Below are positions 12,485 to 48,314 of a stretch of 64,000 nt of DNA, one piece after another (the stretch's first letter is position 1; each line of letters opens with the position of its first letter). The position numbers and the translations under genes are program-made. The stretch comes from Alphaproteobacteria bacterium (GTDB taxonomy: Bacteria > Pseudomonadota > Alphaproteobacteria > Rs-D84): NCBI GenBank assembly GCA_033345195.1, contig JAWPOE010000004.1, forward strand, positions 182,569 through 246,568. The letters are read 5' to 3'. The notes under the pieces are model-generated. The model was not told the DNA's origin, ran no database searches, and saw nothing but the letters and a program-made list of their open reading frames with translations.

Positions 12485-12515
12485 CCCACAAAAAATCCCC
12501 CAAACGGGGGATTGT
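12485..12515 (-). terminator. Hairpin terminator downstream of the large surface-protein gene
   Basis: AATCCCCCAAACGGGGGATT hairpin. On the minus strand it is followed by a T-run, and it sits immediately after the stop at 12516. Confidence 0.6.
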
Positions 12516-15500
12516 TCACTGCCAGTCATTCACGACAGAATACTCTGTTCCATTATTAACCTTTAACGCGCCCTCTATTGTCTCGCTTAGCGATCCAAAG
12601 AACACATCATCACCAACCCTGACGCGCAACGAAGGCGTTGTGCGTTGCGCACTGCGCAGGTAAATCACATTACCGCCCGCGTGCAACTTGCGCCCACAGT
12701 CCTCGGCCTCGTTCGCACCTGTACCATATCCAATCGTGGTCAGATTTGGAGGACATTGCTCTGGTACTTGGGCCGTTCGGAAGTTTTTGATTTGCCCACC
12801 AGCAAAATATTTACCTTCACCAACTGGACCACAGGATCCGTCTACAACATTGGCAAAAGAACCCAACTCTGCGTTACCCGCAAAATAATATCCTGGTGCA
12901 CAAACTGTTCCATTGTCCGTTCGACAGCCATATTCATAGGTACCACTTGCATAATCGCTGGCACCACACGCTAATTTTATCGTGCCTGTGTCATTCGTAA
13001 CTGTGCCACGGGCCCAGCAAGTGTGCAATGCGTCATATACGCCATCGCTTGACCAAGAATACTTACTTGTGAACGTACTATTTGATGGTGTCGGACACGA
13101 CTTACAGTTTGCTTGACCTGTTTCATCCTGATAAGTTAGTTCTGCACATGGTGTCTGTGTTGTATTGGCTGGGCCCTGGGTAAAATACCCTTTTGCTGCT
13201 TTCAGACACGATGTTTTACCGGTGTCTGGTTGATATTCCCCAGGCAGACAGGGTTCACGTCCCTGAATGCTGTCGCTGAACGAATAGGTTCCGTCAATGG
13301 GACAGTAATACCCCGCCGAACATGCCTCACATGTCGTCGACCGCGCCGGCAGATACGTACCTGCGTCACATTTCGACAGCTTAGACGCAAACAATTCACC
13401 AATATAACCGATTGTAACGTCACTATCGCGTCCTATTGTACCATCCAAACCAATCACACGTTGGGGATACGGTGTAAAATGATTATTATAATTCTCTACA
13501 TAATAAATAAGAGTGCTTGTTGTCACCTTCGCTTCATCACTTATTACAGGACCCCAGTCACAATTCTCGGTAAAACACCATTTGTGCGGGAATGTATAGC
13601 CTGTCTGGGTTAAATTTTGGGATGGCAGTACACAGTCAAGCTGGCTATAACACTTTAAAACACCATTATCCGTACCATTATATCTCGTAGAAGTATTAAG
13701 AAGCATATCTCTAACTAATATGTCACCGTTTCCGCCGTTTTTATTTAAAATAAACCCGGCATAACACCCATTTTGAGATGTATTACCCACATCTGATAAT
13801 ACATATGGGTAACTACGCACGTTGCGACATAGGCCACAACTCTGTAGTTGTGAGGCCCAGGTCAATGTTGTTCGGCTACCATAGGTCACCTTTTTAGAGT
13901 TAGGACATATGTAGCCCTGTGGACTTGGTTCACATGCACCTGTACCGGGGTTCCACAGGGTACCCGCCACACATGTTCTATAACAAGCATTTTCCGAACC
14001 GGTTGCAGCATCCGACGTCCAATTCGTTGGACACTGGTTTTGTGTTACACTGGTCGACCCAGCTGGACAGTAATAACCAGCGGTACATTCTTTCCACCGT
14101 GCCGTCAACGTTACATCCGCATCAACATTCCAGTTCAAGAATGAATTACCAGATGCATCATAATACATACTGCCGTTATACCACCATCCGTCAAAGACAT
14201 AACCGGCACGTGTTGGCAGCCTTGTTAATTCAGGCATTGGCTGAAAATACGTTGCGGTCACAGATGTTGGCAAATGACCAGACCCACCATTTGCATCTAA
14301 TGTCACAGTATATGTTTTTGCCACCCAACATGCATACAACGTTGCATCTGCCGTATACGCAGTATAAAAGGTTGACGCGATACGACCATCGGCATCGATA
14401 CGCTGGGTCCCAGAACAAGCTGTACTGGTATAATATCCACCAAATGTATAACCTGTTTTGGTTGGCAGTGTAATCGGGTTGGCACCCAACGTCACACTCG
14501 AAATCGTCATCTTTTTATTCAGTGCCATACTATCCAGATAAACACCATCGGCATACACCGAATATATTGCCGTCGTCCCAGCCGTGGTTGCACTTTGATT
14601 ATTCAGCGTCAGCGTATTTATCTTGCGGCGTGCCGGATAGTAAGTCGCAGTTGCCGCCGTTGATGTAACCCTTGGCGAAAGAGTAAGCGACACGCCAGAA
14701 TTTGGCAAGGTGTAAGTTGTATACCAGCCATCAAAAATCTTGTATCCTGACGCCGGTGTTAATGTCGCCGGACTGGGCATTGAACATACCGTGTTATATT
14801 TACAACACTGGGTTATAGTGTTGGCACTGGAACTGGGGGTCCATGTCTTTGGATTTCCACAGCCATCCGTCCATGTCAATGTTGCCTCATACGCACCATA
14901 CGCATTTAACGTCACGTCACGATAACAATCTGTCTGCGCCCCTGCACCTGCCGCCGACGTCCAATTCGTTGGACACTGGTTTTGTGTCACACTGGTCGAC
15001 CCAGCCGGACAGTAATAACCCGCAGTACATGCCTCCCATTGTGCATATAGCGTGGTTGGTTGGGTAAACCGCGTGGTTGATGCGTCGGCATAATAACCGG
15101 TTGGTTTTATAATCAGTGTACCACCTCTTGCGCCCGTATAATACCCCGTGAACACATAACCTGCGCGCGTCGGTACCGTAATTGGATTCTCTGTACCTGA
15201 CATCTTGTTTGCCAAAGCAGAATCCAGGTAAACACCAGAACCGTATTTTGAATATATCGCCGTTGTGCCGGATGATGTTGCGCCAGAACTGTTTAACGTT
15301 ATAGTCACTGCTTTCGAAGTATGCGCCGGATAGTAAGACACAGAGGATGAGGTTGATATAATATAAAACGTCTTGGTCGTACCGCCTGATACATTTGTCG
15401 ATGATGACCCCCAACCACCGGTAAAGTTCACATATGGATGATACAACGCATTCTGCGTAGTAGTTGAAGAAGACGACGCCTGCGTCACCGTCGGGAAAGT

Positions 15501-16019
15501 ACAAGCCGTGTTATAATAACATTGCGTTGTCAATGCAGTTGTTCCAGTTGATGACACAGTTGTACTGGTGACCGGGTTTGTCATAGACAGTACTCCCGTC
15601 GCAGTAATTCCATTGGCAGTTTTGTATAATTTAACATCGCGATAACACTTTGTCTGCGCCCCCGCGCCTGCCGCCGACGTCCAATTCGTCGGACACTTGC
15701 TTTGTGTCGCACTGGTCGACCCCGCCGGACAGTAATACCCCGCAGTACATGTGGCATTTGGCGCGCTTAAACCCGTGGTGGTACATGCCTTACCCGCAGT
15801 GCAAAGTGTTCTGGCATTCGTGCCACCTGTACAGTAATAACCCTGCTCACACTGTTTACACGAATTTTCGACACCGGTGCCGCTTAAATAATACCCCGGA
15901 TTACAGGACGTGTATTTTTTTAATGTCGGACACGTATACCCCGCACCGAATGCATTAACGGTAAAAAACGAAACGACTAAAATCGCGCAAAAACGCAGAA
16001 ATCTTGAAAATCTTCCCAC
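12516..16019 (-). CDS. Giant secreted surface protein with Listeria-Bacteroides (Flg_new/InlB B-repeat-like) repeats and Cys-rich GYYCPAGS modules; putative adhesin
   Basis: 1167 aa with GTG start, an AGAGGAAG RBS and signal peptide MGRFSRFLRFCAILVVSFFTVNAFGA. CTAGYYCPAGSTSxTQxxCPTNWTS modules occur three times, and TLxxNGG..PTRAGYxFxGWY Flg_new-like units are repeated. Confidence 0.7.
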   Translation of the reverse strand: MGRFSRFLRFCAILVVSFFTVNAFGAGYTCPTLKKYTSCNPGYYLSGTGVENSCKQCEQGYYCTGGTNARTLCTAGKACTTTGLSAPNATCTAGYYCPAGSTSATQSKCPTNWTSAAGAGAQTKCYRDVKLYKTANGITATGVLSMTNPVTSTTVSSTGTTALTTQCYYNTACTFPTVTQASSSSTTTQNALYHPYVNFTGGWGSSSTNVSGGTTKTFYIISTSSSVSYYPAHTSKAVTITLNSSGATSSGTTAIYSKYGSGVYLDSALANKMSGTENPITVPTRAGYVFTGYYTGARGGTLIIKPTGYYADASTTRFTQPTTLYAQWEACTAGYYCPAGSTSVTQNQCPTNWTSAAGAGAQTDCYRDVTLNAYGAYEATLTWTDGCGNPKTWTPSSSANTITQCCKYNTVCSMPSPATLTPASGYKIFDGWYTTYTLPNSGVSLTLSPRVTSTAATATYYPARRKINTLTLNNQSATTAGTTAIYSVYADGVYLDSMALNKKMTISSVTLGANPITLPTKTGYTFGGYYTSTACSGTQRIDADGRIASTFYTAYTADATLYACWVAKTYTVTLDANGGSGHLPTSVTATYFQPMPELTRLPTRAGYVFDGWWYNGSMYYDASGNSFLNWNVDADVTLTARWKECTAGYYCPAGSTSVTQNQCPTNWTSDAATGSENACYRTCVAGTLWNPGTGACEPSPQGYICPNSKKVTYGSRTTLTWASQLQSCGLCRNVRSYPYVLSDVGNTSQNGCYAGFILNKNGGNGDILVRDMLLNTSTRYNGTDNGVLKCYSQLDCVLPSQNLTQTGYTFPHKWCFTENCDWGPVISDEAKVTTSTLIYYVENYNNHFTPYPQRVIGLDGTIGRDSDVTIGYIGELFASKLSKCDAGTYLPARSTTCEACSAGYYCPIDGTYSFSDSIQGREPCLPGEYQPDTGKTSCLKAAKGYFTQGPANTTQTPCAELTYQDETGQANCKSCPTPSNSTFTSKYSWSSDGVYDALHTCWARGTVTNDTGTIKLACGASDYASGTYEYGCRTDNGTVCAPGYYFAGNAELGSFANVVDGSCGPVGEGKYFAGGQIKNFRTAQVPEQCPPNLTTIGYGTGANEAEDCGRKLHAGGNVIYLRSAQRTTPSLRVRVGDDVFFGSLSETIEGALKVNNGTEYSVVNDWQ
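14020..15760. repeat. Intragenic long direct repeats (three about 80-bp near-identical cores spaced about 720-930 bp apart) inside the surface-protein gene
   Basis: GACGTCCAATTCGTTGGACACTGGTTTTGTGT..GGTCGACCCAGC(C/T)GGACAGTAATAACC recurs at about 14020, 14950 and 15670. Antisense ORFs in the ORF track also recur (..PPTSNSLDTGFVSHWSTQPDSN..). Confidence 0.8.
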
Positions 16020-16136
16020 TTTTCTTCCTCTTTATACGCATATCATAGAAAAAATCAAGGGTACAGCACAAGTAAAAAATCCAGCGACATCAAAAAATTT
16101 TTTTCGTGACATACGATTCGTTATATCAAAAAAGTA

Positions 16137-16207: not shown

Positions 16208-17017
16208 CTATATAACCTTGCCCTGGGTTGGATAGAATGTTAACTGTATCTTTTTCCATTTATCAAATTCATTTGCTGGCAACATGCGCAACGGCTGGCA
16301 CGTATTAATCGCCGCCCGTATCGTATCCAACACATACGCGAATGCCGGGTCTGTTTCCGCACGCGATTCTGATTCAAACCAAACATCTTGAACGGTGCCA
16401 TTTTTTCGCATTGTCAAATGCGCCACCGCACGAATATCTGTGATATCTGGACGCGTGGTATCGACAACCCAACAGCGCGTCATCGCAACACGCAATGCAT
16501 CAACAACAGATATCGTCAGGGTTCTGTCCAGGGATAAAACCTCGCGATTGACACGCACAACTTTCTTTTTCTTTGGCGCGGCCGGCGCATCCGTGACAGG
16601 TTTTGATGCTTCCTTTGATTTTTCTTTCTGTGGCTCTGGCTTTTTTTCCGGTTCTTCCACCTTTTCATCTGGTTCCGGTTCTGGTTCCGGCTCTTCAACC
16701 AATGTTGGTGTTTCTATTTCTACCTTTTCTGGTTCTTCTGCCTTTACTTCCTTGGCATCTGGCTTTGCCACCGGGGCAGGGGTCGGTTCTTCCACTTTCT
16801 GTTCAACAACCTGACCAACATTATAAAGTTTTGTTTCATCACCAGACACAACAACCTGGTTCAAATCAATTTCAATAATTTCAATCCTGTCTGGCGTCAC
16901 CAGGCGCGCACGGTTAACAACAATCGCAAACGACGTTATCATAATTGCAACCAACGCCAAATGTCCGCCAACAGACATCAACAGGTTTTCTGATGAAAAT
17001 TGATTAAACTTCGCCAT
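16208..17017 (-). CDS. tolA: TolA/TonB-like energy-transducer protein
   Basis: An N-terminal TM anchor (LALVAIMITSFAIVV), a Pro/Glu/Lys-rich linker (EEPEPEPEPDEKVEEPEKKPEPQKEK) and a C-terminal TolA/TonB-like domain. It follows tolQ-tolR. Confidence 0.6.
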   Translation of the reverse strand: MAKFNQFSSENLLMSVGGHLALVAIMITSFAIVVNRARLVTPDRIEIIEIDLNQVVVSGDETKLYNVGQVVEQKVEEPTPAPVAKPDAKEVKAEEPEKVEIETPTLVEEPEPEPEPDEKVEEPEKKPEPQKEKSKEASKPVTDAPAAPKKKKVVRVNREVLSLDRTLTISVVDALRVAMTRCWVVDTTRPDITDIRAVAHLTMRKNGTVQDVWFESESRAETDPAFAYVLDTIRAAINTCQPLRMLPANEFDKWKKIQLTFYPTQGKVI

Positions 17018-46847: not shown

Positions 46848-47531
46848 ATGGCCGCACAAACAAACAAACAAACAAACAAACAAACAAACAAACAATTAAA
46901 TAAAATTCTGTGGGGAATCATCAGCGCTGCAATTTGCATATTTTATAAGTCAGAGGTTCGCGCAACACATCTAACCAACTGCTCTGCCACCTTAACTTCA
47001 TCTGTACGGCTTAACACAACTGCTTATACCTATTCTGTATGCAGTGCGGCAACAATATGCAATGGCACCTGCGCCAACAAATGGATTTCTGATTTTTCCT
47101 ATGTCACAAACGACGGCACAAAATACCAACTATGCGATTATCCCAACAGTTATGTATCATCATGCAAGGATGCATCTGGAAACATAATCAACGACCCATC
47201 CTTGTTCTATACATGTCGAACAAAGGGCCTCTGTACCGGCTGTCCTAACGGTGGCAAAACTTCTGATGCTGCATATGTTAAAGTATCCCCTGCCATTACA
47301 AACAAAACCTATTATGTCTGTTCGCAATACAACCAAATAACAGACCAACTGATAGACAATTATTATTATTACATGCAGGTGTATACGTTAAATTGTCCAA
47401 GTGGGGGCGTCTGGGATCGCGCACACACAATAGAAGATTGTTATCTGCCAGATGGCACATACACTGACAATACCGGCACTTTCACAATCAGCGGCACCAC
47501 AGGCGCAACATCCTGTACATACGTAAACTAA
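46848..47531 (+). CDS. Cys-rich secreted/surface protein with a 5' (CAAA)8 repeat; candidate phase-variable gene
   Basis: MAAQTNKQTNKQTNKQLNKILWGIISAAICIFY..; 15 Cys. The in-frame tetranucleotide repeat encodes (QTNK)n before the hydrophobic signal or anchor segment. Confidence 0.6.
   Translation: MAAQTNKQTNKQTNKQLNKILWGIISAAICIFYKSEVRATHLTNCSATLTSSVRLNTTAYTYSVCSAATICNGTCANKWISDFSYVTNDGTKYQLCDYPNSYVSSCKDASGNIINDPSLFYTCRTKGLCTGCPNGGKTSDAAYVKVSPAITNKTYYVCSQYNQITDQLIDNYYYYMQVYTLNCPSGGVWDRAHTIEDCYLPDGTYTDNTGTFTISGTTGATSCTYVN
46857..46891 (+). repeat. Tetranucleotide microsatellite (CAAA)8+CAA inside the 5' coding region
   Basis: CAAACAAACAAACAAACAAACAAACAAACAAACAA, counted by eye: eight full units plus three bases (35 bp). 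Confidence 0.9.
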
Positions 47532-47606: not shown

Positions 47607-48314
47607 ATGAATAAACTTAGCAAACTTTTTTGGCACATAATCAGCACGGCAATTTGTGTTTCTTTTCGCAATGAATGTAACGCAGTTGACATTAATTACA
47701 TCAGCATGAAACGGGATTGTTGTGTAACCAAAACAGAATTGGTTTATTGGTGGAACATACTCCTATCCCCAAACGACGACACGTGGCACAATTATTGCTC
47801 ATATCCCAGCAAATACGACGCAGATTACGAACCATCCATACAAAAACCAACAGAACCCATTAACTGGAACACTTACGAAATGCTTGTAATAGACGGCAAC
47901 TTTTTTGCAGAAATATACAACAACCACCATTATTTAAACAGTTGCATTGAACGCACCACTAATAAAACATTATACAACGACGGTTCATCGAATTTTATTG
48001 ACCAATGCAACCTAAACAAACTATTCATTCACAAATGTCCGTACAACGGCATCGTTAAAAACCCCATCACAATAATAAGGGGAAAAGAATCAAACACAGA
48101 ACATTTTATTTGCACCACTGCAAACCTGACCCACAATGCCACAGGCGGTACTCTTAAACTATACAGACAATTTTCCATTTGCAGTGCGTGCGACGGCATC
48201 AATAACAACACTCCCAGTATAACATCCTGCTATCAACCTGCAACCACAGAAAACACCCTATACGAAAACAGATACGGATATTTCACACTAGAGAGCGACT
48301 GCCATGCGAAATAA
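47607..48314 (+). CDS. Cys-rich secreted protein, paralogue of the 46848 gene (no repeat tract)
   Basis: The N-terminus MNKLSKLFWHIISTAICVSF parallels LNKILWGIISAAICIFY in the 46848 product; 16 Cys. Confidence 0.55.
   Translation: MNKLSKLFWHIISTAICVSFRNECNAVDINYISMKRDCCVTKTELVYWWNILLSPNDDTWHNYCSYPSKYDADYEPSIQKPTEPINWNTYEMLVIDGNFFAEIYNNHHYLNSCIERTTNKTLYNDGSSNFIDQCNLNKLFIHKCPYNGIVKNPITIIRGKESNTEHFICTTANLTHNATGGTLKLYRQFSICSACDGINNNTPSITSCYQPATTENTLYENRYGYFTLESDCHAK

Follow-up and report, generated by a model that had tools for sequence, protein, structure and literature searches.

The gene at positions 12516..16019 on the reverse strand of a 64,000-nucleotide stretch of DNA (the window; positions 182,569 to 246,568 of contig JAWPOE010000004.1, assembly GCA_033345195.1) encodes a protein of 1167 amino acids (aa), which belongs to a large, unnamed and fast-changing family restricted to the Rs-D84 / Enterousia lineage. 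We refer to it as the 'AGYTC ... CTD' family, after its N-terminal motif and its conserved C-terminal domain (CTD). The window comes from a gut alphaproteobacterium, a Candidatus Enterousia of the order Rs-D84. The complete coding sequence, which starts with GTG, is identical to NCBI MDW2958624.1, labelled 'InlB B-repeat-containing protein [Alphaproteobacteria bacterium]'. That the window protein is a repeat protein was already known from this annotation; what deserves attention beyond it is the family context, a CTD that matches nothing in the databases, and the hypervariable gene at a fixed locus of a genome-reduced gut symbiont. The original prediction, made from the letters of the window, lacked this family context, including the conserved N-terminus, the CTD, the Ephrin_rec_like stalk and the hypervariable locus. 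Our results suggest that the window protein, Sec-exported, disulfide-rich, and modular, is probably an adhesin or coat protein of the cell surface, with diversity arising through the shuffling of its modules; that it is an exported modular protein is far more certain than that it is adhesive. All features of the gene described below lie on the reverse strand.

Conserved ends and family distribution

Proteins of this family consist of a conserved leader with the AGYTC motif, a hypervariable middle, and an all-beta CTD of ~60 aa. The window protein has both conserved ends, a leader followed by an AGYTCxxxKxYTSC N-terminus and a CGR.LH.G..IYLRS..RT.PSL...Y.V.D domain at the end, and shows 38-61% identity to other members over the N-terminus and 44-77% over the CTD. 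Dozens of proteins of 700-3200 aa share aa 1-~100 and aa ~880/1087-1167 with it, and their middles are unrelated. The predicted signal peptide, MGRFSRFLRFCAILVVSFFTVNAFG (aa 1-25, 15945..16019), has three Arg residues and a hydrophobic core of 12 residues, and its cleavage site directly before AGYTC reads A-F-G, where relatives have the canonical VFA. The leader is kept across the family, as is the Cys-rich region that follows it (AGYTCxxxKxYTSCNxGYY..., aa 26-90, 15750..15944). The signal peptide of the original prediction is thus supported by sequence features.

In a search with a CTD profile, 833 representative clusters at 50% identity were found, 422 of them at E<=1e-10, and the window protein itself scored 120.6 bits over residues 1087-1167. 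The proteins found are up to 5143 aa long, and the CTD is nearly always located at the extreme C-terminus. A word-indexed search with the CTD profile returned mostly short fragments. In a genome scan based on a CTD alignment of six close sequences, the named genome matches were Candidatus Enterousia or Alphaproteobacteria gut metagenome-assembled genomes (MAGs), with the exception of a weak match in Streptococcus (L022; 40% identity, E 5e-5). The sole family member labelled Muribaculaceae (P0057, on L024) lies on a contig syntenic with the window. Two open reading frames (ORFs) of the window, 911-2131 (-) and 2141-4567 (-), which encode proteins with signal peptides and no Pfam match (406 aa, 5.4% Cys; 808 aa, 3.7% Cys), are present as the same pair in the same order beside P0057 on this 473-kb contig. 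The contig probably belongs to an Rs-D84 relative and received the Muribaculaceae label through an error in binning or taxonomy.

Several family paralogues are found per genome of <1 Mbp, and family genes are arranged in tandem in L002, L006, L008, L009, and L011. Relatives carry PF07699, PF07562, and PF23091 annotations, and full-length Pfam scans of three Cys-rich members of 1500-3200 aa (L005:566-10243, P0318, and P0006) returned no families. Probably, the compositional/bias filters of HMMER hide Cys-rich domains from full-length scans with hidden Markov models (HMMs). Most family members are annotated as hypothetical proteins because such scans return nothing. In the literature we found no description of the family or of its CTD, and the Enterousia papers found are genome and metabolism surveys.

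The C-terminal part of the window protein is composed of a family-conserved Cys-rich stalk (aa 884-1107, 12699..13370) and the family-defining all-beta CTD (aa 1108-1167, 12519..12698; CGRKLHAG..IYLRS..RTTPSLRV..FFGSL..ALKV..EYSVVNDWQ). The stalk carries Ephrin_rec_like (TNFR-like) repeats: scanned as a segment (aa 883-1107), it matched PF07699 in three stretches at 33.1 bits (cutoff 23.1, E 5e-8). Like Ephrin_rec_like (PF07699), TNFR, and ELAPOR1-like repeats, it has the motif type CxxGxYC...C, but unlike the Ephrin_rec_like repeats of eukaryotes, with which the literature found on PF07699 is concerned, it occurs in a bacterium. The CTD was modelled with six beta strands at a predicted local distance difference test score (pLDDT) of 79. 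The CTD has no Pfam, NCBIfam, or PDB match, and its model has no fold neighbour in PDB. No significant match came from sequence searches of PDB, whether the query was the CTD profile, the full protein, or the C-terminal stalk.

Strictly C-terminal and conserved, the CTD looks like a sorting or anchoring element. As in proteins exported with the CTD of the type IX secretion system (T9SS) or an autotransporter barrel, a small all-beta conserved C-terminal domain is common to hundreds of otherwise unrelated large secreted proteins. The T9SS Por_Secre_tail CTD (PF18962 / TIGR04183) gave no HMM match, and the CTD model lacks a PDB neighbour. For a type V autotransporter beta-barrel, which would take ~250-300 aa, there was no Pfam/NCBIfam match, and the C-terminal 280 aa consist of Cys-rich repeats and the 60-aa six-strand domain. 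A giant RTX adhesin of the type I secretion system was rejected, as the protein has a Sec-type leader, 54 Cys residues, and no RTX match in the Pfam scan.

Repeat domains and cysteine modules

Both its HMM matches and a predicted beta-grasp-like fold place the window protein in the Flg_new domain family. The whole protein matched Pfam Flg_new (PF09479) at 57.3 bits (cutoff 27, E 1.7e-15) in three stretches, and TIGR02543 at 25 bits (cutoff 20.95), in agreement with the original prediction of Flg_new repeats. One domain is canonical Flg_new / InlB B-repeat (aa 569-644, 14088..14315; 41.3 bits). Two long-form units of the type 'NNQSATTAGTTAIY...PTKTGYTFGGYYT...TLYAxW' match only the second half of the Flg_new model, and both are sub-threshold when scanned alone in a segment-wise Pfam scan: repeat 1 (aa 237-330, 15030..15311) reached 20.1 bits in a partial match to model positions 22-64, and repeat 2 (aa 466-568, 14316..14624) 19.2 bits. 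In addition, there are three beta domains that could be taken for spacers, each with a conserved Cys pair: aa 130-236 (15312..15632), aa 370-465 (14625..14912), and aa 753-~845, the last followed by a linker (aa 753-883 together, 13371..13763) and matching residues 784-1090 of P0318. In hhalign, these domains aligned with canonical Flg_new repeats (probability 91.7%, E 7.7e-7), the alignment being limited to the C-terminal 40 columns, and the Pfam Flg_new model was matched by 3 of 12 copies from the family. On this profile similarity we regard them as divergent Flg_new relatives.

The regions aa 89-330 and 329-567 are a tandem duplication of a three-domain unit, in which a four-Cys knot of 39 aa is combined with a divergent Flg_new-like beta domain and a long-form Flg_new repeat. 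An AlphaFold2 model of aa 328-648, built from an alignment of 20 sequences (pLDDT 91, predicted template modelling score 0.82), resolves a small irregular Cys knot, the beta domain, the long-form Flg_new, and the canonical Flg_new. In Foldseek, this model matched the InlB B-repeat (2y5p) with probability 1.00, a target-normalised TM-score of 0.54-0.58, and 26% identity; InlB392 entries and the Flg_new domain of Treponema sialidase were also matched. Thus, the Flg_new region, with the canonical domain among the matches to 2y5p, is predicted to take the InlB B-repeat fold.

Like other Flg_new / InlB B-repeat proteins (PF09479, TIGR02543, 2y5p), the window protein is extracytoplasmic, built of repeats (one canonical, two long-form, and three divergent domains) and from a gut organism. 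Unlike them, it comes from a diderm alphaproteobacterium, and several of its domains have internal disulfides and alternate with four-Cys knots. An identity as an internalin was rejected: no leucine-rich repeats, inter-repeat region, GW, or LPXTG features were found in Pfam/NCBIfam scans, and the C-terminus reads ...YSVVNDWQ.

The four-Cys knots are the GYYCPAGS modules that the original prediction had noticed as three repeats on DNA cores of ~80 bp. Module 1 (CTAGYYCPAGSTSATQSKCPTNWTSAAGAGAQTKCYRDV, aa 91-129) is encoded at 15633..15749, module 2 (aa 331-369), whose DNA served as the reference copy, at 14913..15029, and module 3 (aa 645-683), together with a further Cys-rich stretch up to aa 752, at 13764..14087. 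Copies of the DNA repeat (~80-125 nucleotides (nt) each) span 13965-14089, 14907-15031, and 15627-15751, with a measured spacing of 942 and 720 nt. A tblastn search with module 2 recovered the other two modules (E 8e-21 and 1e-17), which shows that the repeats did not arise by chance. The description of the modules as near-identical holds for modules 1 and 2 (90% aa and 89% nt identity) but is generous for module 3, which shows 77-80% aa and 83% nt identity to module 2 and 69-71% aa and 75% nt identity to module 1. Their likeness to Ephrin_rec_like (PF07699)-type Cys repeats is at motif level only. Outside the Enterousia family, two proteins (P0009, which has a type IV pilin-like N-terminus, and P0091) also pair Flg_new with GYYCPA-type or Ephrin_rec_like Cys repeats, and the pairing is therefore not unique to the lineage.

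The sequence belongs to a MAG, contigs often break at related genes (L004 and L010), and many database matches are fragments, so one might suspect that assembly had created the ORF or its repeats, or that the gene is decaying. This is highly improbable. The 1167-aa frame is uninterrupted, has a ribosome binding site, a leader, and a terminator, and lies on a contig of 277 kb; the internal region is predicted to fold with high confidence, and the N-terminal half is colinear with the independent orthologue P0318. Collapse of the repeats during assembly is also unlikely, because the copies are short (<=125 nt) and diverged (74-89% nt identity).

The tolA-X-secA slot and the origin of the gene

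The slot between tolA and secA is occupied by a family gene in at least three species, and the positional orthologues encode proteins of 1167, 2090, and 3225 aa with largely unrelated middles. In L005, the order is tolA, the gene for the 3225-aa protein (L005:566-10243), secA, and dnaE, where TolA, SecA, and DnaE are 87%, 91.6%, and 91% identical to their counterparts in the window. The 3225-aa protein, however, aligns with the window protein only by its first 68 aa (59%) and its last ~300 aa (46%), with other Cys-rich repeats making up the middle. In L023, ybgC, tolQ, tolR, tolA, and a DUF2817 gene are followed by the gene for the 2090-aa P0318. Neither the window nor L005 has the DUF2817 (PF10994) gene (L023:3055-4209), which in L023 is inserted between tolA and the gene for P0318. 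Colinearity of P0318 with the window protein extends over aa 1-565 (50%) and 643-937 (35%), but P0318 lacks the canonical Flg_new domain, has ~1000 extra residues of Cys-rich repeats, and carries another CTD subtype. Because the orthologues in L005 and L023 differ in length, middle, and CTD subtype, module content, length, and even CTD subtype turn over much faster at this slot than the flanking housekeeping genes. Variants in module number, as well as in module content, do exist among relatives.

Within the gene, the Cys modules have evolved in concert. Inside the module, the two tandem units are 90% identical in aa and 89% in nt, whereas outside it they are 45% and 50% identical. Among codons for the same amino acid, synonymous differences were found at 8 of 35 inside the module and at 52 of 85 elsewhere in the unit (Fisher p = 2.4e-4). 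The flanking parts of the units are closest to their orthologues in P0318 (51% and 51%, as compared to 45% and 35% for the paralogous pairs), which places the tandem duplication before the species split. The modules show the opposite: they are 69-90% identical to each other and 44, 52, and 67% identical to their positional orthologues in P0318, and all three are closest to the third module of P0318 (67-72%). As the modules are closer within the gene than to their positional orthologues while the flanks are not, the sequence comparison indicates that intragenic gene conversion homogenised the Cys modules in the lineage of the window. The link that the original prediction drew from the repeats to recombination is thus supported, both by this concerted evolution and by the scarcity of synonymous differences in the module. 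The ~117-nt DNA core of the module was also considered as a recombination site shared between genomes and was rejected, since it is not conserved in the genes of other species.

Horizontal acquisition of the gene, put forward as possible in the original prediction, is not supported as a recent event. GC content at third codon positions (GC3) is 0.414, as compared to 0.409+-0.038 in 30 neighbouring genes, and the correlation of relative synonymous codon usage (RSCU) with the pooled neighbours is 0.76, inside the range of 0.39-0.90 shown by the neighbours themselves; the comparison of GC3 and codon usage thus revealed no deviation. Total GC of the gene is raised to 47% because GC at second positions is 0.57, which results from an amino acid composition rich in T, G, S, A, C, and P. 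Nor is Flg_new unexpected in an alphaproteobacterium, as had been thought. Many Enterousia / Rs-D84 proteins carry a Flg_new annotation, and Flg_new is a gut-habitat-linked domain found across bacterial phyla and archaea, regarded as a convergent or transferred gut adaptation (PMC9723798); being common in the lineage and gut-linked across phyla, it is not surprising in this host.

A recently acquired adhesin from Firmicutes or Bacteroidota would be in keeping with several similarities: the canonical and long-form units of Flg_new share 40-47% identity with repeats of proteins labelled Clostridia or Clostridiales and of proteins with Gram-positive-type pilin leaders, a GYYCPA-type Cys module stands beside Flg_new in such proteins as well (P0009 and P0091), and a spread of Flg_new among gut microbes has been suggested (PMC9723798). 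However, the native GC3 and RSCU values, the tolA-X-secA slot conserved in at least three species, and N- and C-terminal regions specific to the Enterousia / Rs-D84 family together argue against recent acquisition, which we consider improbable. Exchange at the level of domains with other gut organisms, by ancient transfer of single domains, is plausible.

The gene order in the window is ruvB, two copies of ybgC, tolQ, tolR, a tolA-like gene, the gene at 12516..16019, secA, dnaE, and rsmH. The tolA-like gene (16208-17017, -), downstream of tolR, encodes a 269-aa protein that has one transmembrane (TM) segment at its N-terminus and a linker rich in Pro, Glu, and Lys, as would be expected of TolA; it has no Pfam match at E<=1e-5 and is TolA-like by position and composition only. 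The GTG start and the ribosome binding site of the original prediction were confirmed, with a Shine-Dalgarno sequence, AGAGGA, read 6 nt upstream of the GTG (16026..16031). Directly 3' of the stop codon, an intrinsic terminator hairpin, AATCCCCCGTTTGGGGGATT, is followed by a T-run (12494..12513), and a terminator-like hairpin of the upstream tolA-like gene lies at 16153-16136 (-). With hairpins after its own stop and after the tolA-like gene, the gene looks like its own transcription unit. Both hairpins are built of homopolymer runs, C7...G9 after the tolA-like gene and C5...G5 after the gene at 12516..16019. We also weighed whether the C7...G9 run, which lies ~115 nt before the GTG, might act as a phase-variation element, but read it as the stem of the putative tolA terminator. 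An Rfam scan of the whole window found no families.

Possible role and significance

In the most likely scenario, the window protein would be exported by Sec and its 54 cysteines (4.6% of a sequence otherwise rich in T, G, S, A, and Y) would then be oxidised in the periplasm. The molecule may form an extended, protease-resistant fibril or coat component displayed on the cell, in which export, anchoring, or assembly would fall to the conserved N- and C-terminal modules, while binding or antigenic specificity and diversity would come from the variable middle. The result would be attachment to a host, mucus, or partner-cell surface. Flg_new has been treated as an adhesin stalk domain (PMC9210967) and as adhesin-like in the gut (PMC9723798). 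Like fibrillar adhesin-like and 'periscope' stalk proteins (Monzon and Bateman; PMC9210967), the window protein has a long array of stalk domains, a T/S/G-rich composition, variable module number, and recombination-prone DNA. Unlike them, it has no known adhesive tip or anchor that was detected, its repeats form a heterogeneous mosaic rather than near-identical tandem copies, and it has terminal modules of its own. Of the proposal that the protein is a candidate adhesin or host-interaction protein, the exported, modular, adhesin-like build therefore stands, whereas no known adhesive domain was detected.

Several points weigh against an adhesin or coat protein on the cell surface, or against the evidence used for it. 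No known adhesive (ligand-binding) domain appeared in the Pfam/NCBIfam scans. Among features that could take the protein across the outer membrane, neither an autotransporter barrel nor a T9SS CTD, a lipobox, or an RTX signal was found, so retention in the periplasm is possible. No partner gene was conserved beside family genes among 23 loci, which showed only at least two different conserved slots. The GYYCPAGS modules alone had no significant Pfam match (best TNFR_ELAPOR1_6th, E 0.22, and ADAM_CR, E 0.72), PF07699 was reported in the segment scan and not in the full-length scan of the window protein, the confidence of the CTD model is only moderate (pLDDT 79), and the inference of gene conversion is based on one orthologue and modules of 39 codons.

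With a Sec leader, no recognisable module for outer-membrane translocation or anchoring, and a gene that adjoins Tol envelope genes, the window protein could instead be periplasmic or released, for example as a structural or scavenging protein of the envelope. We give this little probability: surface fibrils are typically built of such proteins of 1100-5100 aa with stalk repeats, the gene is next to tol and secA by position only, with terminators between, and the strictly C-terminal conserved domain resembles a sorting or anchoring element.

The adhesin reading overlaps with another one, in which the family makes a variable protective coat, a disulfide-rich layer for immune or phage evasion like the variant-specific surface proteins (VSPs) of Giardia. 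Giardia VSPs have ~12% Cys, frequent CXXC motifs, and a C-terminal TM helix with a CRGKA tail. Like these VSPs and the Cys-rich surface antigens of ciliates, the window protein belongs to a multigene family of a gut dweller, and would be a Cys-rich extracellular protein with a conserved C-terminal part and a variable rest; this is a functional analogy only. The Cys content (4.6%, and up to 6.5% in relatives), the conserved termini with a replaceable middle, the several paralogues and tandem arrays in genomes of <1 Mbp, and the extreme variability of positional orthologues in a gut-dwelling organism all fit a coat. In contrast to Giardia VSPs, however, the window protein lacks a TM anchor or hydrophobic C-terminal segment and a CRGKA tail, and only four CXXC motifs were counted by eye. 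There is no sign of switching machinery or silent cassettes, and a search for paralogues within the 64-kb window found none. Flg_new is also generally treated as an adhesin stalk. The two roles are not mutually exclusive. A coat of this kind therefore seems rather unlikely as the sole explanation, and an adhesin, or a protein that interacts with a host or partner, is the reading we favour.

The 833 clusters that carry the CTD, its location almost always at the end of the protein, and the lack of any sequence or fold neighbour make it conceivable that the CTD is a signal for sorting or anchoring. Tentatively, and as a speculation that we do not hold to be likely, it might belong to an as yet unrecognised pathway of outer-membrane export or attachment in the genome-reduced gut order Rs-D84, with the family as the principal, rapidly diversifying interface to the host or partner and the middle as shuffled cassettes, partly of eukaryote-type Cys-rich repeats, kept by gene conversion. 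Rs-D84 genomes are <1 Mbp and lack the TCA (tricarboxylic acid) cycle, respiration, flagella, and standard transporters (PMC12306168).

Elsewhere in the window, four consecutive ORFs at 32264-37890 (+) encode proteins of 291, 349, 503, and 609 aa with signal-peptide-like N-termini and no Pfam match at E<=1e-5. They may be a lineage-specific envelope or secreted cluster and, as such, candidates for the missing export or anchoring machinery. Two Cys-rich ORFs with N-terminal hydrophobic segments, 46848-47531 (+; 227 aa, 6.2% Cys) and 47607-48314 (+; 235 aa, 5.5% Cys), lie directly upstream of GT2 and GT8 glycosyltransferase genes.

Rs-D84 / Candidatus Enterousia are widespread uncultured gut residents that have hardly any metabolism or transporters of their own, which raises the question of how they attach to and live off a host or partner. 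For a genome of <1 Mbp, a multigene family of disulfide-rich, presumably surface-exposed proteins of 1-5 thousand residues is a large investment. Because of its conserved leader and CTD, its hypervariable middles at a fixed locus, and the signs of gene conversion, the family is an obvious candidate for the interface with the host or partner. Routine full-length HMM scans have filed most of its members as hypothetical proteins, and the CTD provides a concrete, searchable marker for the family and could itself be tested as a new signal for sorting or anchoring.

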